Shown here: piece after piece, positions 988 through 44,044 of the stretch | Numbering within the stretch: position 1 is the first letter of the stretch | How the letters are laid out: each line of letters begins with the position of its first letter | Source of the DNA: Escherichia phage vB_EcoP-UTI89UKE2 | Sequence record: MZ234049.1 | DNA: 44,293 nt | Direction: 5' to 3' (one strand) | Position numbers and translations under genes: made by a program | The notes under the pieces: model-generated | What the model saw: only the letters and a program-made list of their open reading frames with translations | Databases searched by the model: none | Told to the model about the DNA's origin: nothing

Positions 988-3615
988 ATGCAAGACCTAC
1001 ACGCTATTCAACTTCAACTTGAAGAAGAAATGTTTAACGGCGGTATCCGTCGCTTTGAAGCGGACCAACAACGCCAGATTGCATCCGGTAATGAATCAGA
1101 CACGGCATGGAATCGCCGCTTATTGTCCGAGTTAATCGCGCCAATGGCTGAAGGTATTCAGGCATACAAGGAAGAGTATGAAGGTAAAAGAGGCCGTGCA
1201 CCGCGTGCATTAGCTTTCATTAACTGCGTAGAAAACGAAGTGGCAGCATATATCACGATGAAAATCGTTATGGATATGCTGAACACGGATGTAACCTTGC
1301 AGGCTATAGCCATGAATGTAGCTGACCGCATTGAGGACCAAGTACGTTTTAGCAAGCTGGAAGGTCACGCCGCCAAATACTTTGAGAAAGTTAAGAAGTC
1401 ACTTAAGGCAAGTAAGACTAAATCATATCGCCATGCGCACAACGTAGCGGTCGTGGCTGAGAAGTCAGTAGCTGACCGTGACGCTGATTTCTCTCGCTGG
1501 GAGGCGTGGCCTAAAGATACCTTGCTACAAATTGGTATGACCTTGCTAGAAATACTGGAAAATAGTGTATTCTTCAATGGTCAGCCTGTCTTTCTTCGCA
1601 CCTTGCGCACTAATGGTGGCAAGCATGGCGTTTACTACTTACAGACTAGCGAACACGTGGGTGAATGGGTAACTGCATTTAAAGAGCACGTAGCTCAGCT
1701 GAGTCCAGCCTATGCGCCTTGCGTTATTCCTCCTCGTCCGTGGGTTTCTCCGTTTAATGGCGGCTTCCATACTGAGAAAGTAGCAAGCCGTATTCGTCTA
1801 GTAAAAGGCAATCGTGAGCACGTCCGCAAGCTGACCAAAAAGCAAATGCCAGCGGTTTACAAGGCTGTTAACGCTTTGCAGGCGACTAAGTGGCAGGTTA
1901 ATAAAGAGGTTTTGCAGGTAGTAGAGGACGTTATCCGTCTCGATCTTGGTTATGGTGTGCCTTCCTTTAAACCACTCATCGACCGTGAGAACAAGCCAGC
2001 TAATCCAGTGCCGTTAGAGTTCCAGCACCTGCGAGGCCGTGAATTGAAAGAGATGCTAACACCGGAGCAATGGCAGGCCTTCATCAACTGGAAGGGTGAA
2101 TGTACTAAGCTGTATACCGCTGAGACTAAGCGCGGCAGCAAGTCGGCGGCGACCGTCCGCATGGTAGGACAGGCCCGTAAATACAGCCAGTTTGACGCTA
2201 TTTATTTTGTATATGCACTGGATAGCCGTTCACGCGTTTATGCGCAATCTAGCACGCTCTCGCCGCAATCAAACGACTTAGGCAAGGCATTGCTCCGTTT
2301 TACCGAAGGGCAGCGTCTTGATAGCGCTGAGGCGCTTAAGTGGTTTTTGGTGAACGGGGCGAATAACTGGGGTTGGGATAAGAAAACTTTTGACGTGCGC
2401 ACCGCTAACGTGCTGGATAGTGAATTTCAAGACATGTGCCGCGACATTGCAGCGGATCCGCTGACCTTCACTCAATGGGTAAATGCCGACTCCCCTTACG
2501 GCTTCCTTGCATGGTGCTTTGAATATGCGCGTTATCTGGATGCACTGGATGAAGGCACGCAAGACCAATTCATGACGCACCTCCCAGTCCATCAAGATGG
2601 TAGTTGTTCTGGTATCCAGCACTACAGTGCTATGCTACGCGATGCAGTAGGTGCGAAAGCGGTAAACCTTAAGCCCTCTGACTCCCCTCAAGATATTTAT
2701 GGTGCCGTTGCGCAGGTAGTAATTCAGAAGAATTATGCATACATGAATGCAGAGGATGCGGAAACCTTCACTTCTGGCAGCGTGACTTTAACAGGTGCAG
2801 AACTTCGTAGCATGGCTAGTGCGTGGGATATGATAGGAATCACTCGCGGCCTGACCAAAAAGCCTGTAATGACACTACCTTATGGCAGCACACGTCTAAC
2901 CTGCCGTGAATCAGTGATTGATTATATCGTTGATTTGGAAGAAAAAGAGGCCCAACGGGCTATTGCGGAAGGGCGTACCGCCAATCCTGTACATCCTTTT
3001 GATAATGACCGCAAAGACAGCCTGACACCTAGCGCAGCTTATAACTATATGACAGCTTTAATCTGGCCTTCTATTTCGGAAGTGGTTAAAGCTCCTATAG
3101 TGGCAATGAAAATGATTCGTCAGCTTGCACGTTTCGCAGCTAAAAGAAACGAAGGCTTAGAATATCCCTTACCAACTGGCTTCATCTTGCAACAAAAGAT
3201 AATGGCTACCGATATGCTCCGCGTATCCACTTGCTTGATGGGTGAAATCAAGATGAGTCTCCAGATTGAAACAGATGTAGTTGATGAAACGGCAATGATG
3301 GGTGCGGCTGCTCCTAACTTCGTCCATGGTCACGATGCTAGCCACCTGATTCTGACTGTATGTGACCTAGTGGATAAAGGTATTACATCCATTGCAGTCA
3401 TCCATGATTCTTTCGGTACTCATGCAGGACGTACCGCAGACCTGCGGGATAGCTTAAGGGAAGAAATGGTTAAGATGTATCAAAACCATAATGCCCTGCA
3501 AAACCTGCTAGATGTGCACGAAGAGCGTTGGTTAGTAGACACCGGAATCCAAGTACCAGAGCAAGGAGAGTTTGACCTTAACGAAATCTTAGTTTCAGAC
3601 TATTGTTTCGCATAA
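988..3615 (+). CDS. single-subunit DNA-dependent RNA polymerase (T7/SP6 type; closest to SP6 RNAP by recollection)
   Basis: 875-aa ORF with RBS AGGAG at 972-976. Contains the family motifs [27 protein letters not shown] and [12 protein letters not shown], and a C-terminal DYCFA. Length and N-terminus [19 protein letters not shown] match SP6-type RNAP. Confidence 0.95.
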
Positions 3616-3769: not shown

Positions 3770-3830
3770 AAGGAAGTAATAGGTATTAAAGGTTATATAG
3801 GTTATCTAGGAATACCTATTACCTTCTTCC
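3770..3830. repeat. AT-rich block with four AGGT motifs at 9-bp spacing inside an inverted repeat (TAATAGGTATT / AATACCTATTA)
   Basis: AGG at about 3780, 3789, 3798 and 3807; flanking arms are reverse complements. Confidence 0.6.
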
Positions 3831-4072: not shown

Positions 4073-6061
4073 ATGGCTATTATTCAGAATGTACCGTGTC
4101 CTGCCTGTCAAAAGAATGGACATGATATTACTGGCAACCATCTTATGATATTTGAGGATGGCGCTGGTTACTGTAACCGTGGTCACTTCCATGATAACGG
4201 CAAGCCTTATTACCATAAGCCAGAGGGTGGCATCGAGATAACCGAATTACCTATTACTGGCAATATCAAATATACACCTTCTCAGTTTAAAGAGATGGAG
4301 AAGGAAGGGAAGATTAGCGACCCTAAGCTACGCGCCATCGCACTTGGTGGTATGCGTATGAAAGACCGTTGGGAGGTCATGAATGAGCAAGAAAGGGCAG
4401 AACAAGAAGCAGAGTGGAAACTTGATGTTGAATGGTTCCTCACGCTTAAGCGTAAGAATCTTGTTTCCCGACACATTCGCGGCGACATTTGCGCATTGTA
4501 CGATGTACGTGTCGGACACGATGAAGATGGTAGAGTCTCACGGCATTACTATCCACGCTTCGAGAAAGGTGAGCTAGTAGGCGCTAAGTGTCGCACATTA
4601 CCTAAAGACTTTAAGTTTGGTCATTTAGGTAAACTCTTTGGTATGCAAGATCTTTTCGGTATGAATACTTTGTCTCACGTGTTAGACAAGGGAAGACGAA
4701 AGGATTGCTTGCTTATTGTGGGCGGCGAACTGGATGCACTAGCAGCACAGCAAATGCTCCTTGATTCTGCCAAGGGTACTAAGTGGGAAGGCCAGCCTTA
4801 CCATGTATGGTCTGTCAATAAAGGTGAGTCTTGCCTTGAAGAGATAGTACAGAACCGTGAACACATCGCCCAATTTAAGAAGATTATATGGGGTTTTGAT
4901 GGAGATGAGGTAGGGCAGAAGCAGAATCAGCAAGCGGCTCGCCTGTTTCCTGGCAAATCCTATATCCTTGAATACCCTTCTGGTTGCAAAGATGCTAACA
5001 AGGCATTGATGGCTGGCAAGGCTAAAGAGTTTGTTGATGCTTGGTTTAATGCCAAGTCATCTGATGAAGTCTTTGGTAGCCAGATTAAATCTATCGCATC
5101 TCAAAGGGATAAGCTCAAGGCTGCACGTCCAGAGCAAGGGCTATCATGGCCTTGGCCTAAGCTGAACAAGGTAACGCTAGGTATTCGTAAGAACCAGCTT
5201 ATCATTGTAGGTGCAGGTTCTGGTGTAGGTAAGACTGAGTTCCTCCGCGAAGTGGTTAAACATCTCATTGAAGAACACGGTGAATCTGTAGGCATCATTT
5301 CTACAGAAGACCCAATGGTCAAGGTGTCCCGTGCTTTTATCGGCAAGTGGATTGATAAGCGTATTGAGTTACCGCCAACCAACGACCCGAAAGAAGACGG
5401 ATACCGTGAGGTGTTCGACTACACCGAGGAAGAAGCTAACGCTGCCATTGATTATGTAGCTGATACAGGAAAGCTATTTGTGGCTGACCTAGAAGGCGAT
5501 TATTCTATGGAGAAGGTAGAGCAAACTTGCCTAGAGTTTGAGGCTATGGGCATTTCTAATATCATCATTGATAACTTAACGGGGATTAAATTAGATGAGC
5601 GTGCTTTTGGTGGGAAGGTTGGTGCACTTGATGAATGCGTCAAACGAATTGGTACTATCAAAGACCGACATGCGGTTACGATTTTCCTTGTCTCTCACCT
5701 TACACGTCCTCCGGCAAACCGTACCCAACACGAAGAAGGTGGCGAAGTTATCCTTTCTGACTTCCGAGGCTCAGGCGCTATCGGATTCTGGGCATCTTAC
5801 GCCTTGGGGATTGAGCGTAATACAAGAGCTGAAACGCTTGATGAAAGGACTACCACGTACATCTCGTGTGTCAAAGACCGCGATCAAGGTATCTACACTG
5901 GAACCAAGGTCATGCTTAAAGGTGACATTCAGACCGGACGTTTGATGGAACCACAAGCCCGTACTAAGTCATTTGATACAGGTGAAGCAAGGCAGCAAGA
6001 GGTGCCTGATTTACCGGACACTATAGAAGAGACAAACTTTGAAGATGAACAGGAGTTTTAA
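4073..6061 (+). CDS. DNA primase/helicase (T7 gp4-like)
   Basis: N-terminal Cys4 zinc ribbon (CPACQKNGHD...YCNRGH), Walker A GAGSGVGKTEF, and a C-terminal acidic tail ending FEDEQEF as in T7 gp4. Confidence 0.93.
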   Translation: MAIIQNVPCPACQKNGHDITGNHLMIFEDGAGYCNRGHFHDNGKPYYHKPEGGIEITELPITGNIKYTPSQFKEMEKEGKISDPKLRAIALGGMRMKDRWEVMNEQERAEQEAEWKLDVEWFLTLKRKNLVSRHIRGDICALYDVRVGHDEDGRVSRHYYPRFEKGELVGAKCRTLPKDFKFGHLGKLFGMQDLFGMNTLSHVLDKGRRKDCLLIVGGELDALAAQQMLLDSAKGTKWEGQPYHVWSVNKGESCLEEIVQNREHIAQFKKIIWGFDGDEVGQKQNQQAARLFPGKSYILEYPSGCKDANKALMAGKAKEFVDAWFNAKSSDEVFGSQIKSIASQRDKLKAARPEQGLSWPWPKLNKVTLGIRKNQLIIVGAGSGVGKTEFLREVVKHLIEEHGESVGIISTEDPMVKVSRAFIGKWIDKRIELPPTNDPKEDGYREVFDYTEEEANAAIDYVADTGKLFVADLEGDYSMEKVEQTCLEFEAMGISNIIIDNLTGIKLDERAFGGKVGALDECVKRIGTIKDRHAVTIFLVSHLTRPPANRTQHEEGGEVILSDFRGSGAIGFWASYALGIERNTRAETLDERTTTYISCVKDRDQGIYTGTKVMLKGDIQTGRLMEPQARTKSFDTGEARQQEVPDLPDTIEETNFEDEQEF

Positions 6062-6267: not shown

Positions 6268-6294
6268 AGTACATTAAATAACTGGAGATTGATT

Positions 6295-6978
6295 ATGTAT
6301 AAATTAGTATTGAATGCAGGTGATTATGTTCGTAACATCAATGCAACCTCACGTAGATATCGTTGCCGTGGTACTGTGACTAATGTAAGTGAAAACAGCT
6401 ACTATGTAGAGTACAGTAATGGTATTAGACAGGCTTATCAAAAGGAATCAGCACATAACTACCTTGAGAAGATTGGAGAGGTAAGCAATCAATGTAAGTG
6501 CGTACACGATGAGATTTGCGATAAGTGTGCCCGCCAGATGCATAAAATGCTATTATACCCTCTTCGCTATGGTGCTGGCATTCAAACCTTATCAGAGGCA
6601 TATGGCAAAGGTAAGACTACACTTAATAAAGATCGCCGCAATGTAATCACTGGTAAGACTCAAAGTGAAATGATTAAGCAATGTGGCACTGCACTAGGTG
6701 TTACGCAGTTTAACACTCGTGCTCTTGGTAAATCCACAGGACAAGCTATGGTGAAGATTGGTGAAGCCATGATGCACCCAAATGTACCTGTGCGAATCAT
6801 GGATGTTGACCATGCAATCACAGAACACGGTACACCACGACGTGTAGCTAATAAGCATTTTGCCGACACTATAGAAGGTATTATCCGTAAGCAAGGGTTG
6901 AAAGGTCTTCACCTCTTGAATGGTGAAGAATTACTGTATCTCCCTATTGTTACTGAAGAAACCTACGTGAATATTTAA
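6295..6978 (+). CDS. hypothetical protein (227 aa) with Cys cluster CKCVHDEICDKC
   Basis: ORF with RBS GGAG at 6284-6287 and ATG at 6295. The track start at 6289 is a TTG extension. Confidence 0.7.
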   Translation: MYKLVLNAGDYVRNINATSRRYRCRGTVTNVSENSYYVEYSNGIRQAYQKESAHNYLEKIGEVSNQCKCVHDEICDKCARQMHKMLLYPLRYGAGIQTLSEAYGKGKTTLNKDRRNVITGKTQSEMIKQCGTALGVTQFNTRALGKSTGQAMVKIGEAMMHPNVPVRIMDVDHAITEHGTPRRVANKHFADTIEGIIRKQGLKGLHLLNGEELLYLPIVTEETYVNI

Positions 6979-7569: not shown

Positions 7570-10102
7570 TTGGAAGAAGGAGGCAGAAGGCCGTATCCTC
7601 GTGATGGATGCGGAAGCTAAAGGACTCCTTGACGCTATCCGCTATGGTCATCGTGAAGATGTGCATATCATTTGCTGCATGGACTTGCTTACTACCGAGG
7701 AGTTTCTCTTCTTTGACCCGTATGAGATGCGTGACCCTGAAGCAAGAGAACACCTGAAGGAATGGGAAGGTCATCAAGATGGTGACTTGGTTGATGGTGT
7801 TAACTTCCTGAAGCACTGTGAAGCTATTGTGTCGCAGAACTTCCTAGGGTACGACGGCCTTCTATTTGAGAAAGCATTCCCTGATATCTGGAAAGGCTTT
7901 AACTATACCGAGAGACGCGGCAAGGGCAGACTCCGCGCTGACCTGTGTCCTGTACGCGTCATGGATACGCTGGTCATGAGTCGCCTGTTAAACCCCGATA
8001 GACGCCTCCCTCCGCAAGCATACGCCAAAGGCATGGGTAACGTCGCCCCTCACTCAATTGAGGCGCACGGCATCCGTATAGGCCGTTATAAGCCGGAGAA
8101 CGAGGATTGGTCTAAGCTAACTGACCACATGGTTCACCGTGTACGGGAGGACGTGGCGATAGGCCGTGACTTGTTCCTCTGGCTCTTTAACGGGGAATGG
8201 ATGGAGCACAAACGCCGTGGCGTGAATAAACGCACTGGCCTAGGTATTGAGACAGCCTTCCACATGGAGTCCATTGTGGCGCTGGAGATGAGCCGTCAGG
8301 CCGAGCGTGGATTCCGTCTGGATATAGATAAAGCATTAGCACGATGCGAGGAATTGGACGCTAAGATTGATGAGACAGTCGCAGCGTTCCGTCCGCACAT
8401 GCCTATGCGTATCAAGTCTAAACCTTTTAAACCGGAAGAAAAGAATGAAGTATGCCAACGCGCAAATGAGTATGGAGCTAGCAACAATATACCTACTGTC
8501 CTTGACCCCTCTCACTTTCTTCACGCAGAGAGACGAGGAGATCGCAAGACAGTATGGAGTGTCACTACTAAGTCTGGTGATTGGTCGGCTAGCGTCAAGA
8601 AAGACTTTCCTCACCTTAGAGGAAACCGTAATGACACGCCAAGCATCAAGTGGATTGGCGCTTACTCGCCTGTTACTTTCGAAGAGATTCCCTTGGGTAA
8701 CAGGGATACAGTTAAGCAAGTGCTCTATGATTATGGATGGAAAGGTGTTGAATTTAACGATACCGAGCAAGCGCATCTCGATGAGCATGGCGTATTACCC
8801 AAGCCTTGGAGTGGGAAGATAAATGAAAAGTCCCTTACTTTATGGCAAGAGAGAGCCGCACGTGAAGGTAAAACAGTCCCTGATTGGTGCTTGGGTATCG
8901 CTGCATGGTACATACTCGTATCCCGTCGTGGTCAGATCCTCAACCGTGGTGACGTTGAAGCCTTCGACCAGAAGGGGGTATGGCCTTCGCAAGCTGGTAT
9001 ACGAAAGTGTCGCGGCCTTGTACCTGTAGCATTTAACAAGGAGTTAGGAATCAATGCGCAGCAATACTACGAAAGGTACGGATGCTGGCCTACGTCAGAC
9101 AAGGATGACGGAGAATGGCGTGTGCCAGCTATTGCTATTAGTATTGGAACTTCTACGTTCCGTATGCGTCATCGTAACGTGGTTAATATTCCTGCCCGTG
9201 GTTTGTATCCTTTACGTGATTTATTCATAGCCGGTAAAGGTAAGCTAATCCTTGGTTGTGATGGTGCTGGTCTTGAACTACGTGTACTGTCTCACTTCAT
9301 GAATGACCCTGAATATCAAGATATTGTACTGCATGGTGACATTCACACCCATAATCAAATGAAGGCTGGTCTTCCTAAGCGTGACATGGCGAAGACATTT
9401 ATATATGCCTTCCTATATGGATCTGGTATAGCTAACCTTGCAGCAGTATGTGGTGTTACTGAGGAAGAAATGGAGGAAGTTGTGGCAAGATTTGAGGTTG
9501 AACTACCATCTCTTGCACGCCTTCGTGAGAATGTTATCGCACAAGGTAACAAGTTTGGCTACCTACAAGCACCTGATGGTCATTGGGGTCGCATCCGTAT
9601 GTCTGGTGGTGAACTTAAAGAGCACACTATGCTTAACGTACTACTCCAGATGACTGGTTCTCTGTGTATGAAATACGCATTGGTCAGAGCGTTTGCAGTG
9701 ATGCGCAAGGAAGGTGTGGCCTTAGATAGCATGGGAAACCCTTGCGGTATAGCTAACGTGCACGATGAAATCCAGATGGAAGTCCCTGAAGATGAGGTCT
9801 TGTATCTCAACTATGACTTGCCTTTCACCTTAGAAGGGTTCGAAACAGAGAAGGCTGCTGTGAAAGCAGTGTTCGATGCAGAGGAGAAACGTGTTCATGT
9901 GGATTCTGAAGGACGTATGTGGTCTGCTGCAAATCTCGTTAGCGTTGATGCTGATGCTGGTGTACTTCATTGCCAGCGTCGTTATCACCGTGCAGGGCAT
10001 ATCATTGCCGATGCAATGACTTGGGCTGGTCATTATTTGAAGATGCGTTGTCCGATGGCAGGTGAGTATAAGATTGGTGCAAGCTGGAAGGAAACACACT
10101 GA
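7556..10102 (+). CDS. DNA polymerase (family A, T7 gp5-like, with 3'-5' exonuclease domain)
   Basis: Motifs VMDAEAKGL (exo), GCDGAGLELRVLSHF (motif A), KTFIYAFLYGSG (motif B) and NVHDEIQMEV (motif C). RBS GGAGG at 7546-7550. The track start at 7529 is a non-ATG extension. Confidence 0.93.
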   Translation: MKTVDWKKEAEGRILVMDAEAKGLLDAIRYGHREDVHIICCMDLLTTEEFLFFDPYEMRDPEAREHLKEWEGHQDGDLVDGVNFLKHCEAIVSQNFLGYDGLLFEKAFPDIWKGFNYTERRGKGRLRADLCPVRVMDTLVMSRLLNPDRRLPPQAYAKGMGNVAPHSIEAHGIRIGRYKPENEDWSKLTDHMVHRVREDVAIGRDLFLWLFNGEWMEHKRRGVNKRTGLGIETAFHMESIVALEMSRQAERGFRLDIDKALARCEELDAKIDETVAAFRPHMPMRIKSKPFKPEEKNEVCQRANEYGASNNIPTVLDPSHFLHAERRGDRKTVWSVTTKSGDWSASVKKDFPHLRGNRNDTPSIKWIGAYSPVTFEEIPLGNRDTVKQVLYDYGWKGVEFNDTEQAHLDEHGVLPKPWSGKINEKSLTLWQERAAREGKTVPDWCLGIAAWYILVSRRGQILNRGDVEAFDQKGVWPSQAGIRKCRGLVPVAFNKELGINAQQYYERYGCWPTSDKDDGEWRVPAIAISIGTSTFRMRHRNVVNIPARGLYPLRDLFIAGKGKLILGCDGAGLELRVLSHFMNDPEYQDIVLHGDIHTHNQMKAGLPKRDMAKTFIYAFLYGSGIANLAAVCGVTEEEMEEVVARFEVELPSLARLRENVIAQGNKFGYLQAPDGHWGRIRMSGGELKEHTMLNVLLQMTGSLCMKYALVRAFAVMRKEGVALDSMGNPCGIANVHDEIQMEVPEDEVLYLNYDLPFTLEGFETEKAAVKAVFDAEEKRVHVDSEGRMWSAANLVSVDADAGVLHCQRRYHRAGHIIADAMTWAGHYLKMRCPMAGEYKIGASWKETH

Positions 10103-10384: not shown

Positions 10385-10406
10385 ATTTACTGGACACTAT
10401 AGAAGG
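10385..10406 (+). promoter_or_regulatory. phage RNAP promoter (ATTTACTGGACACTATAGAAGG)
   Basis: Exact match to the consensus recurring in this genome; SP6-type core CACTATAGAAG. Confidence 0.8.
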
Positions 10407-10460
10407 AAAGCCTAGGTAATCTAGGTTTATAAGGTAGTATAGGTAATTAAGTAAATATAG
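10405..10460. repeat. phased (T)AGGT repeat array downstream of a promoter
   Basis: TAGGT/AAGGT/TAGGA motifs at about 9-bp spacing (CCTAGGTAATCTAGGTTTATAAGGTAGTATAGGTAA...). Confidence 0.6.
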
Positions 10461-11155: not shown

Positions 11156-11176
11156 TTACTGGACACTATAGAACAA
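11153..11176 (+). promoter_or_regulatory. phage RNAP promoter (TAATTACTGGACACTATAGAACAA)
   Basis: Consensus core; overlaps the stop of the upstream ORF. Confidence 0.75.
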
Positions 11177-11226
11177 TAGGTCGGCTTAGTTCGGCCTATG
11201 ATTGTAAAGTGTTGAACCGCCTTTTG

Positions 11227-15560: not shown

Positions 15561-15600
15561 TTGACACTATAGAACAAAGGGTAGGTATTAGCTTACCCTT
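15555..15600 (+). promoter_or_regulatory. phage RNAP promoter (ATTTAGTTGACACTATAGAAC) followed by a leader hairpin (AAGGGTA-loop-TACCCTT)
   Basis: Promoter variant closest to the classical SP6 consensus ATTTAGGTGACACTATAGAAG; the hairpin begins at +1. Confidence 0.7.
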
Positions 15601-20635: not shown

Positions 20636-20658
20636 ATTTACTGGACACTATAGAAGGG
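20636..20658 (+). promoter_or_regulatory. phage RNAP promoter (ATTTACTGGACACTATAGAAGGG) for the major capsid gene
   Basis: Exact consensus 48 nt upstream of the capsid ATG. Confidence 0.85.
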
Positions 20659-20706
20659 AGAAATGTCTCCCTAAATTATCAATTTGATTTATAAGGAGGT
20701 TTATTA

Positions 20707-21916: not shown

Positions 21917-21952
21917 GCCCTATCTACCTTGCGTAGGTAGGGTTCTTTTTTG
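21917..21952 (+). terminator. T-phi-like intrinsic terminator (CCCTATCTACC-loop-GGTAGGG followed by TTCTTTTTTG)
   Basis: Perfect GC-containing stem plus U-run directly after the capsid gene. Confidence 0.8.
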
Positions 21953-21964
21953 TTAGGAGGATTC

Positions 21965-33142: not shown

Positions 33143-33337
33143 ATGATTAACTCCGAACTGGTAGATAGTGGTGTGAAGCTTGCGCCACCTGCATTAGTCT
33201 CAGGTGGGTACTTCCTCGGTATCAGTTGGGATAATTGGGTGTTAATAGCAACATTCATTTATACCGTGTTGCAAATTGGAGACTGGTTTTATACCAAGAT
33301 TAAACTATGGAGGAAGAATCGTGAGCGTCCACAATAA
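33143..33337 (+). CDS. putative holin (64 aa)
   Basis: RBS AAGGAGG; hydrophobic segment plus charged C-terminus KLWRKNRERPQ; position equivalent to T7 gp17.5. Confidence 0.55.
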   Translation: MINSELVDSGVKLAPPALVSGGYFLGISWDNWVLIATFIYTVLQIGDWFYTKIKLWRKNRERPQ

Positions 33338-33620
33338 ACATGCAGCTACGGAAGATGAGGTTGGCATCCTGCATGGTGCTATTACCAAAATCTTTAATAA
33401 GAAAGCACAGGCAATACTGGACACTATAGAAGAAGACCCAGATGCAGCACTGCATTTAGTCTCTGGTAAAGACATTGGAGCTATGTGTAAGTGGGTTCTT
33501 GATAATGGTATTACCGCTACACCTGCTGCACAGCAGGAGGAGTCCAAGCTATCTAAGCGCCTCAAGGCTATCCGAGAGGCATCAAGTGGCAAGATTATTC
33601 AATTCACTAAGGAGGATTGA
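33321..33620 (+). CDS. terminase small subunit (gp18-like); GTG start after RBS GGAGG
   Basis: Immediately upstream of, and overlapping, the large terminase gene. Confidence 0.5.
   Translation: MSVHNKHAATEDEVGILHGAITKIFNKKAQAILDTIEEDPDAALHLVSGKDIGAMCKWVLDNGITATPAAQQEESKLSKRLKAIREASSGKIIQFTKED
33413..33435 (+). promoter_or_regulatory. phage promoter-like sequence (AATACTGGACACTATAGAAGAAG) inside the small terminase gene
   Basis: One mismatch to the consensus, embedded in coding sequence (encodes ILDTIEED). Confidence 0.55.
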
Positions 33621-35518
33621 TGGCTAAGGCAAGAGAATCACAAGCGGAGGCTCTTGCCAGATGGGAGATGCTACAGGAGTTACAGCAGACCTTTCCTTAC
33701 ACAGCGGAAGGTTTGCTTCTCTTTGCAGATACAGTTATTCATAACTTAATTGCAGGCAACCCTCATCTGATTCGTATGCAGGCGGATATCTTGAAGTTCC
33801 TATTTTACGGACACAAGTACCGCCTCATCGAAGCGCCTCGTGGTATCGCTAAGACAACACTATCAGCAATCTATACGGTATTCCGTATTATTCATGAACC
33901 ACATAAGCGTATCATGGTTGTGTCCCAAAACGCCAAGCGAGCAGAGGAAATCGCAGGTTGGGTAGTTAAAATCTTCCGTGGCTTAGACTTTCTTGAGTTT
34001 ATGCTGCCGGATATCTACGCTGGGGACCGTGCATCCGTTAAGGCGTTTGAGATTCATTACACCCTACGTGGTAGTGATAAGTCTCCTTCTGTATCCTGTT
34101 ACTCAATCGAAGCAGGTATGCAGGGTGCTCGTGCTGATATTATTCTAGCGGATGACGTAGAGTCGATGCAGAATGCTCGTACGGCAGCGGGCCGTGCCTT
34201 GCTTGAGGAACTGACTAAGGAGTTTGAATCTATCAACCAGTTTGGGGATATCATTTACCTTGGTACACCTCAGAACGTAAACTCTATCTACAACAACCTG
34301 CCTGCTCGTGGTTACTCTGTTCGTATCTGGACTGCGCGTTACCCTTCAGTAGAGCAAGAGCAATGTTATGGCGACTTCCTTGCACCTATGATTGTTCAAG
34401 ATATGAAGGACAACCCAGCACTTCGCTCAGGGTACGGGTTGGATGGTAATAGTGGTGCACCTTGTGCCCCTGAAATGTATGATGATGAAGTCCTGATTGA
34501 GAAGGAAATCTCTCAGGGTGCTGCTAAGTTCCAGCTTCAGTTCATGCTTAACACTCGCATGATGGATGCTGACAGATACCCATTACGCCTGAACAATCTA
34601 ATCTTCACCTCGTTTGGTACAGAGGAAGTCCCTGTGATGCCTACGTGGAGTAATGATTCCATAAACATCATTGGTGATGCACCTAAGTATGGTAACAAGC
34701 CTACGGATTTCATGTACAGACCTGTAGCTCGCCCATACGAATGGGGTGCTGTCTCCCGCAAGATTATGTATATTGACCCTGCGGGTGGTGGTAAGAACGG
34801 AGATGAGACGGGTGTAGCCATCGTATTCCTGCACGGCACATTCATTTATGTGTATCAGTGCTTTGGTGTACCTGGCGGATACCGAGAGTCGTCCCTGAAT
34901 CGCATTGTGCAGGCCGCAAAGCAGGCGGGTGTTAAAGAGGTATTCATTGAGAAGAACTTTGGTCATGGCGCGTTTGAGGCGGTAATTAAGCCGTACTTTG
35001 AACGAGAGTGGCCTGTAACTCTGGAAGAGGATTACGCCACCGGACAGAAAGAGTTGCGTATCATTGAGACGCTGGAGCCGCTCATGGCAGCCCATAGGCT
35101 TATCTTCAATGCAGAGATGGTGAAGTCAGACTTTGAGTCGGTACAGCACTATCCGCTTGAACTACGCATGTCCTACAGTCTTTTCAATCAAATGTCGAAC
35201 ATAACGATTGAGAAGAACAGCCTCCGGCACGATGACCGCCTAGACGCCCTGTATGGCGCTATACGGCAATTAACTTCTCAGATAGACTATGACGAGGTTA
35301 CACGGATTAATCGCCTCAGAGCGCAGGAGATGCGCGATTACATCCATGCTATGAATACACCTCATCTACGCAGGGCAATGCTATATGGAGATTACGGTAC
35401 TGAGCGAAGAGTGACCAACACTTCCGTAGCGATGCAGCAGCGAGTTTACGGGCAGAACTACCGAAATAAATCGGCAAGCAGAAATACACTTTCTGCAAGG
35501 ATTTCAAGGACTTATTAA
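33620..35518 (+). CDS. terminase large subunit (gp19-like)
   Basis: Walker A-like RGIAKTT ... ILADDVE (Walker B) and C-terminal nuclease region. The track start at 33617 is a TTG. Confidence 0.9.
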   Translation: MAKARESQAEALARWEMLQELQQTFPYTAEGLLLFADTVIHNLIAGNPHLIRMQADILKFLFYGHKYRLIEAPRGIAKTTLSAIYTVFRIIHEPHKRIMVVSQNAKRAEEIAGWVVKIFRGLDFLEFMLPDIYAGDRASVKAFEIHYTLRGSDKSPSVSCYSIEAGMQGARADIILADDVESMQNARTAAGRALLEELTKEFESINQFGDIIYLGTPQNVNSIYNNLPARGYSVRIWTARYPSVEQEQCYGDFLAPMIVQDMKDNPALRSGYGLDGNSGAPCAPEMYDDEVLIEKEISQGAAKFQLQFMLNTRMMDADRYPLRLNNLIFTSFGTEEVPVMPTWSNDSINIIGDAPKYGNKPTDFMYRPVARPYEWGAVSRKIMYIDPAGGGKNGDETGVAIVFLHGTFIYVYQCFGVPGGYRESSLNRIVQAAKQAGVKEVFIEKNFGHGAFEAVIKPYFEREWPVTLEEDYATGQKELRIIETLEPLMAAHRLIFNAEMVKSDFESVQHYPLELRMSYSLFNQMSNITIEKNSLRHDDRLDALYGAIRQLTSQIDYDEVTRINRLRAQEMRDYIHAMNTPHLRRAMLYGDYGTERRVTNTSVAMQQRVYGQNYRNKSASRNTLSARISRTY

Positions 35519-35538
35519 TTACTGGACACTATAGAAGG
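35517..35538 (+). promoter_or_regulatory. phage RNAP promoter (AATTACTGGACACTATAGAAGG)
   Basis: Consensus; starts immediately after the terminase stop. Confidence 0.8.
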
Positions 35539-35544
35539 AAGGCC

Positions 35545-35630
35545 CGGATAATAAGATAAATAATAGGTAATATATAGGTTAACCTAGGTTATATAGGTAT
35601 GCATTAGTATGGGTGTACTCCTGTACACCC
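35545..35630. repeat. phased TAGGT repeat array (4 copies, 9-11 bp spacing) followed by leader hairpin GGGTGTAC-TCCT-GTACACCC
   Basis: AATAGGTAATATATAGGTTAACCTAGGTTATATAGGTATG, then a perfect 8-bp stem at 35611-35630. Confidence 0.6.
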
Positions 35631-37862: not shown

Positions 37863-37885
37863 ATTTACTGGACACTATAGAAGAG
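37863..37885 (+). promoter_or_regulatory. phage RNAP promoter (ATTTACTGGACACTATAGAAGAG) for the tailspike module
   Basis: Exact consensus. Confidence 0.8.
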
Positions 37886-37964
37886 ATGAGATAGTGCCGT
37901 TCTTTTGAGCGGCCTATTACTAGCCAATCTTCATAGGGAGGATTGGGAAGTAATAGGAGAGTAT

Positions 37965-41139: not shown

Positions 41140-41460
41140 GTGAGGTGTCTCGCCCTCGCCCTCGCCGGATTTCCCCCATATGGGGCCGCGCTGCGGTTGG
41201 CTTGGGAATTGGGCTGGGCTGGTCCGTCTTCGACGGGTGGCCTAGGGCTTGCCGAGGTCTGCTCTTAGTGGCTGCACAAGGAGAACGCCTAGGAAGCGCT
41301 AGGGCACGCCTTAGTATTGGACAAGGTGATTGCCTTAGTGCAATCGCTTAGGGCTTACACAGGGCGTTTTAGGGCCATTCCTGAGCGTTTGACAGGGTGT
41401 GAGGGCGTGGGCTATCTGTTCGTTTCGTTCACTACGCTTGCGCTCCGTTCACTCGCTCAC
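41140..41460. other. GC-rich non-coding segment, probable genome terminus / direct terminal repeat region
   Basis: No credible ORF; CGCCCT x3 and the palindrome CCCCATATGGGG (41174-41185), which resembles the CCCCCATAGGGGG element near the T7 left end; flanked by heptamer repeat arrays as the T7 terminal repeat is flanked by CCTAAAG arrays. Confidence 0.5.
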
Positions 41461-43968: not shown

Positions 43969-43983
43969 CACTATAAGAGAAGG
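43962..43983 (+). promoter_or_regulatory. degenerate phage promoter-like sequence (TAGCTGACACTATAAGAGAAGG)
   Basis: Core CACTATA retained but downstream AGAGAAG instead of GAAG; may be the weak first phage promoter. Confidence 0.3.
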
Positions 43984-44044
43984 CTTAACAAGGCGTTGCT
44001 ACGGTAGCGCCTGATTAAACTTTCACTTACTAGGAGTTGAGATT

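Follow-up and report, generated by a model that had tools for sequence, protein, structure and literature searches.

Does the small-terminase gene of a K1E/K1-5-like coliphage carry, within its own reading frame, a working promoter for the phage RNA polymerase, and if so, which gene does this promoter serve? The question is raised by a short sequence in the window, i.e. the entire stretch of 44,293 nucleotides of Escherichia phage vB_EcoP-UTI89UKE2 (sequence record MZ234049.1) that was analysed here. A 2-kb query around the site assigned the window to Vectrevirus (Autographiviridae, Molineuxvirinae), as it was 100% identical to vB_EcoP-UTI89UKE3 (MZ234050.1) and matched many K1E/K1-5-like phages with 93-99% identity. 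Set against the two K1-5 ends, the window proved to be circularly permuted relative to the physical genome, with a single copy of the terminal direct repeat (Table 1). The annotation of MZ234050.1 is offset by +1 relative to the window coordinates. The cognate T7-like RNA polymerase is encoded in the same genome as the promoter site.

Sequence of the site

A preliminary description of this DNA had placed the 23-mer AATACTGGACACTATAGAAGAAG inside the small-terminase gene (terS), about 200 nt upstream of the large-terminase gene (terL). Both statements hold: the 23-mer is an exact match on the + strand spanning terS codons 31-39 (Ala31 to Asp39), and the predicted +1 at 33429 lies 191 nt before the ATG of terL. 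The same description had counted a single departure from the consensus, and here it has to be corrected. When the site, which reads CAATACTGGACACTATAGAAG from -17 to +4, is compared with the 21-nt consensus of the window (ATTTACTGGACACTATAGAAG, in which +1 is the G following TATA), there are three mismatches, namely C at -17, A at -16 and A at -15. The remaining 18 of 18 positions, from -14 to +4 (TACTGGACACTATAGAAG), are identical to the consensus. The predicted initial transcript from 33429 is GAAGAAGACCC.

A match of this quality is expected by chance about 1e-6 times over the two strands of 44 kb; shuffled sequences gave an expectation of 0 matches. A position weight matrix (PWM) derived from the 12 remaining sites of the window gave the terS site 24.6 bits. 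This is the lowest score of the 13 sites, to be compared with 7.7 bits for the best non-promoter match in the window and a maximum of 15.8 bits over 20 shuffles. Judged by its sequence, the site is a real, non-random promoter sequence, far beyond what chance would produce. It also carries GAA at +1 to +3, the sequence with which SP6 RNA polymerase initiates most actively (PMC7429497).

The three upstream mismatches require a more careful look. The A at -17 and the T at -15 are invariant across the other 12 window sites, and the terS site has C-A-A at -17 to -15 where the others have A-T/A-T, so that two of the three positions are still A or T. The remaining sites of the window (12) and of K1-5 (10) and the 9 sites of SP6 show neither C at -17 nor A at -15, and because both bases are unprecedented among the sites compared, the activity of the promoter could be low. 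The reading frame offers an explanation for two of the three. An Ala codon (GCN) has its second base at -17, and an Ile codon begins at -15; both positions are locked off consensus, as the consensus base would alter the protein. The third base of the Ala codon, at -16, is free to vary: most relatives have A there, and several (L008, L015, NTNC80A and 101118B1) have the consensus T.

Table 1. Features of the window (window coordinates unless a relative is named) bearing on the terS site.
Feature	Position	Strand	Basis or remark
Single-subunit T7-type RNA polymerase gene	988-3615		PF00940 (3.9e-89) and PF14700
Phage-promoter sites (13)	3709, 3893, 6010, 6858, 10386, 11155, 12388, 15556, 20637, 33413, 35518, 37864, 43960	+	
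Promoter leader hairpins	10402-10430, 11171-11200, 15572-15600, 20653-20675, 37880-37920, 43976-44025		
Preceding promoter, consensus, upstream of capsid gene	20636-20658	+	
Tphi-like intrinsic terminator directly after major capsid gene	21917-21953	+	
Holin gene	33143-33337		Record annotation; profile searches agree
Small-terminase gene (terS), 99 aa, GTG start	33321-33620	+	PF11123 (3e-16), PHROG 891 (phrog_891)
SP6/K1-5-type RNA polymerase promoter-like site, -17 to +4	33412-33432	+	Consensus match and PWM
23-mer of the preliminary description	33413-33435	+	Exact match
Predicted transcription start, +1 G	33429	+	Inferred by aligning the 12 other sites; K1-5 position 35505
Large-terminase gene (terL), only gene between the terS promoter and the next	33620-35518	+	Profile searches
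Next promoter, starting at the terL stop codon	35517-35539	+	Conserved in all genera examined
Terminal repeat, single copy of direct repeat / physical end	~41148-41413		Starts TCGCCCTCGCC...; alignment to K1-5 ends
Small ORF between terS and terL	L043-L045 302-745		VEc3, Mt1B1_P10 (hypothetical protein), 101101UKE1
Small ORF between holin and terS	L027 3034-3420		ACG-C91
Small ORF inside terL, splitting it into 40A and 40B	L001 5208-5741		K1E

Codon choice and conservation within Vectrevirus

In terS, the promoter core is read as Ile-Leu-Asp-Thr-Ile-Glu (ATA CTG GAC ACT ATA GAA). Given the peptide ILDTIE and the codon usage of the phage, the probability of choosing the codons that form the promoter is 3.4e-4. 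The minor Ile codon ATA, which accounts for 15% of Ile codons, is used twice.

We aligned terS genes from GenBank phages, IMG/VR and metagenomes. The core is kept in all 21 Vectrevirus-type terS genes, three of which have single-base variants: GGATAC (C-7T, synonymous) in L009, GGGCAC (A-8G, Asp to Gly) in L015 and a G at +3 in ACG-C91. The core changes in L009 and L015 mean that the site is dispensable in at least some lineages. Judging by the title of a 1993 study by Lee and Kang, positions -9 and -8 are said to discriminate T7 from SP6 promoters. As to position -7, the K1-5 counterpart (8320-8340, ATTTACCGGATACTATAGAAG) of the window promoter at 6009 has a T there, as does the terS site of L009; a T at -7 may be tolerated by this polymerase.

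The mean pairwise third-codon diversity of the 21 sequences is 0.032 in the core versus 0.232 elsewhere in terS. The core has the second lowest third-codon diversity of 94 six-codon windows in these 21 closely related sequences, and the 18-nt core is among the lowest 12 of 280 windows. Because the Vectrevirus sequences are closely related, these statistics are descriptive and carry no phylogenetic correction. The conservation ends at the borders of the promoter. Positions -17/-16 vary (CA, CT, TG), and so does the codon at +5 to +7 (GAA, GGG, GGA, GCA, GGT), with changes in the amino acid. Since the sequence varies freely on both sides, the promoter core and the conserved footprint cover the same stretch.

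Conservation of nucleotides beyond the needs of coding was thus found for the core, and one other stretch of terS is equally conserved. This stretch, at window positions 33552-33580 (approximately 232-260 of terS, AAGCGCCTCAAGGCTATCCGAGAGGCATC), has the lowest synonymous diversity of the gene in the 21 Vectrevirus sequences and contains no promoter. In the metagenomic L034, the 5' half of terS is outgroup-like and the sequence is identical to Vectrevirus from about 33552-33580 onward. This hints at either a junction left by recombination or a cis element that is kept conserved; it could, for instance, be the target of a homing endonuclease close to where terS meets terL.

Transcriptional context

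The 13 phage-promoter sites of the window all point along the + strand, as do the genes and all long ORFs. Scanning the window with the consensus and the PWM revealed no phage promoter between 20637 and 33412. Within this interval, the major capsid gene is followed by a strong Tphi-like terminator with an 11-bp stem, GCCCTATCTACC-TTGCG-TAGGTAGGGT, and then TCTTTTTTGT; it is absent from the annotation in the region of the source record that was examined. The terS site is the first promoter past this terminator, 11.5 kb downstream of it. As there is no promoter between 20637 and 33412, the tail, internal-virion, adaptor, holin and terS genes rely on terminator read-through.

On the downstream side, the ATG of terL overlaps the stop codon of terS (TGATG) and is preceded, at a distance of 4 nt, by the Shine-Dalgarno sequence AGGAGG (33610-33615). 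These two elements are found 181-191 nt downstream of +1. Owing to the overlap and the AGGAGG, a transcript from 33429 could be translated without the upstream gene. Furthermore, since the next promoter begins at the terL stop codon, terL is the only gene served specifically by the terS site. In VEc3, Mt1B1_P10 and 101101UKE1, a homing-endonuclease gene at the terS/terL junction is also within reach of the promoter.

A promoter embedded in coding sequence is not unusual even in this genome, where the promoter at 6010 lies inside the 3' end of the helicase gene and that at 6858 inside the 3' end of the ORF 6289-6978.

Distribution outside Vectrevirus and origin of the site

No promoter was found at the terS position in SP6, SE29 (Zindervirus), the Proteus phage Pm5460, the Pectobacterium phage PP1, the Klebsiella phages Koku and PYH-2, or L016-L021, L034 and L035, uncultured relatives with 79-84% protein identity to the small terminase of the window. 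These outgroups encode I-L-D-A-I-E or a similar peptide with other codons (e.g. ATC CTA GAT GCA ATC GAG) and differ by about 7 of 19 nt at the promoter positions. L016-L021 carry GACACTATAG after terL and yet lack the site in terS; with this sequence present, another specificity of the polymerase does not explain why the site is absent from them. In SP6, no sequence between the capsid promoter (22413) and the post-terL promoter (37773) comes within three mismatches of the SP6 consensus. The same promoter gap is found in Pm5460: the promoters in its record, predicted with PHIRE, leave terS without one. A search for partial-promoter intermediates among the IMG/VR and metagenome relatives returned none, only close relatives and known outgroups.

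The simplest history looks like a promoter gain in the ancestor of Vectrevirus, where about seven substitutions each brought the sequence nearer to the consensus; five are synonymous and two turn Ala into Thr. A more far-reaching proposal is that a promoter was born de novo, and at a datable point, in an essential gene by about seven directed substitutions, uncoupling the transcription of terL (and of the homing-endonuclease gene, where present) from that of terS and shifting the terS:terL stoichiometry relative to SP6-like phages. We regard this as rather unlikely.

Proposed function and alternative explanations

The terS site is probably a functional, sub-consensus internal late promoter that tops up terL mRNA. 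The preliminary description had proposed in a similar vein that a phage promoter boosts late transcription of terL, and the intact core, the strand, the RNA polymerase gene, the conserved footprint and the position past the terminator are all consistent with this proposal. According to the model, the SP6/K1-5-type RNA polymerase of the phage would recognise the intact -14 to +4 core and start at G 33429. The resulting transcript would have a 191-nt leader and lack the start of terS, and it would contain the strong Shine-Dalgarno sequence and the ATG of terL. As the genes from 21.95 to 33.4 kb need read-through of the terminator, the promoter would add terL mRNA independently of terS mRNA, and in relatives with a homing-endonuclease insert at the terS/terL junction it would supply that gene as well. 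The promoter would have arisen in the Vectrevirus ancestor from an I-L-D-A-I-E stretch and would since have been kept by selection on nucleotides. The upstream mismatches, which the Ala and Ile codons in part impose (at -17 and -15), probably make the site weaker than the intergenic promoters, and the best reading of its strength is weak to moderate. The sequence match, the strand, the gene context, the lineage distribution and the conservation footprint are observed; that the polymerase starts here in vivo, how strong the promoter is and what terminase expression gains from it are what we infer from these features. A literature search returned no 5'-end, transcript-map or in vitro transcription data for any Vectrevirus. 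A full-text search for the core sequence retrieved no paper; the primary genome papers of K1-5, K1E and SP6 may already list the site. The supplementary promoter table of KBNP1315 was set aside as a comparator since it describes a different promoter type.

A limited but appreciable probability belongs to the idea that the site is a silent or negligible look-alike, whose core appeared in the Vectrevirus ancestor by drift or hitch-hiking and has persisted owing to the youth of the clade and to protein constraint, with -17 to -15 blocking useful binding of the polymerase. The three mismatches at otherwise (nearly) invariant positions and the lowest score of the 13 sites are what one would expect in this case, and the records of K1E, K1-5, UTI89UKE3, SP6, ACG-C91 and LL11 (6 of 6) have no promoter feature at the site, which is unannotated in every record examined. 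The site is also missing from every other genus examined, so that SP6 does without it, as do the Proteus, Pectobacterium and Klebsiella relatives; its core is mutated in two relatives (L009 and L015); and the promoter-free stretch at 232-260 of terS is equally conserved at synonymous sites. However, a look-alike does not readily account for an 18/18 match with an expectation of about 1e-6 and none in shuffled sequences, for a codon choice with a probability of 3.4e-4, or for the fact that all of the approximately seven differences from the outgroup codons go toward the consensus. It is also difficult to reconcile with a footprint that ends exactly at the promoter borders, where the flanking codons change even in the amino acid.

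Two further explanations assign the site another task. One is that its main product is a message for an N-terminally truncated terS isoform or, in some relatives, for the homing endonuclease, rather than terL mRNA. There is indeed an in-frame ATG (Met55) at 33483 with GGAGCT upstream, but the GGAG-to-ATG spacing of 2 nt is poor for initiation, and every genus, with or without the promoter, keeps MCKW at the protein level. Similarly, HNH genes lie directly downstream of terS in VEc3, Mt1B1_P10 and 101101UKE1, but most promoter-bearing phages, the window included, have no HNH insert, and retention of the promoter is independent of its presence. We consider this explanation highly improbable. The other is a cis element that depends on transcription and acts in replication or packaging, i.e. 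a secondary origin, or a polymerase loading or pausing site coupled to terminase, like phiOL, phiOR and the promoter-associated origins of T7, as the preliminary description had suggested by reference to the promoters near T7 genome ends. In T7, promoters together with AT-rich tracts act as origins, and the RNA polymerase has been implicated in concatemer processing. It is from this analogy that the idea derives, the location in a packaging gene being suggestive and not evidence in itself. The physical right end, placed at the terminal repeat by comparison with the K1-5 ends, is however about 7.7 kb away, and the promoters at 35518 and 37864 are nearer to it. The first 80 nt downstream of the site are coding and contain 56% A+T versus 55% in the genome. 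Thus, neither the location at an end nor the AT-rich tract of the end-proximal or origin-associated T7 promoters (phiOL, phiOR and phi1.1A-B-like) is found here. Furthermore, the site is absent from the relatives among SP6-, Proteus- and Klebsiella-type phages that have homologous holin, terS and terL genes in the same order. Such a role is scarcely probable, and this part of the preliminary description is left without support.

If the promoter is active, it explains how terL mRNA is supplied in K1E/K1-5-type phages 11.5 kb past the main late terminator. The site deserves annotation, as synonymous recoding of terS in engineered therapeutic phages directed at the K1 capsule would destroy the promoter. 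It also illustrates how a protein code and a regulatory code can overlap, and how a single lineage can gain a promoter.

Comparison with known promoters

The terS site belongs to a well-known kind of promoter in an arrangement that is ordinary for T7/SP6-type phages, and it does not challenge current views of transcription in the T7 supergroup. The class III promoters phi13 and phi17 of T7 are late promoters of the phage polymerase located after Tphi, at or inside the 3' part of the preceding gene, where they resupply distal transcripts for morphogenesis and packaging; T7 class III promoters match the consensus. Like these, the terS site would be a late promoter for the phage's own polymerase downstream of a post-capsid terminator. 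Unlike these, it has SP6/K1-5-type recognition, departs from the consensus at -17 to -15, and is found within the first third of terS, so that it would serve only terL. The intragenic class II promoters of T7 (phi4c, phi4.3 and phi4.7), which are found within coding sequence in the DNA-metabolism region, are off consensus and presumed to be weaker. They share with the terS site its embedding in a coding sequence and its departure from the consensus, but they are not in packaging genes and respond to a polymerase of another specificity.

Among promoters of its own type, the terS site has GACACTATAGAAG in common with the SP6 promoter ATTTAGGTGACACTATAGAAG; positions -12 to -10 differ between the two. 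It differs from the other 12 promoters of the window by the C, A and A at -17 to -15, by the lack of a significant leader hairpin and by its position deep in a gene. Another parallel is found in SP6 gene 36 (AY288927.2, 29393-29413, CGCTAGGTGACACTATAGGTG), where a core match is perfect from -14 to +1 and non-consensus at -17 to -15, as in terS. It too is intragenic and located in a late gene, within a long promoter-free stretch after the capsid terminator. The gene is not homologous, however, and +2/+3 are GT rather than AA. The match in gene 36 may be an independently arisen analogue of the terS site.

Further observations on the region

Small ORFs, which are annotated as HNH or homing endonuclease in 4 of 5 records, occur at three places around the Vectrevirus packaging genes (Table 1).

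Most intergenic promoters of the window are followed, 2-15 nt after +1, by a hairpin with a folding energy of -9 to -23 kcal/mol and a z-score down to -5.3. They presumably stabilise the 5' end or serve in its processing. The leader starting at 33429 has no significant 5' hairpin (-10.5 kcal/mol, z = -0.75), and a hairpin is not discriminating as a hallmark of a promoter.

Several leaders (35534-35610, 3770-3805 and 10415-10450) are AT-rich and contain repeated (T)ATAGGT(A/T) motifs, e.g. AATAGGTAATATATAGGTTAACCTAGGTTATATAGGTATGCA downstream of the promoter at 35518; there are 3 occurrences of TATAGGTWA versus 0.75 expected. The 35518 promoter, which is followed by such an AT-rich leader and occupies a phiOR-like position, could together with this tract form an origin-type element.
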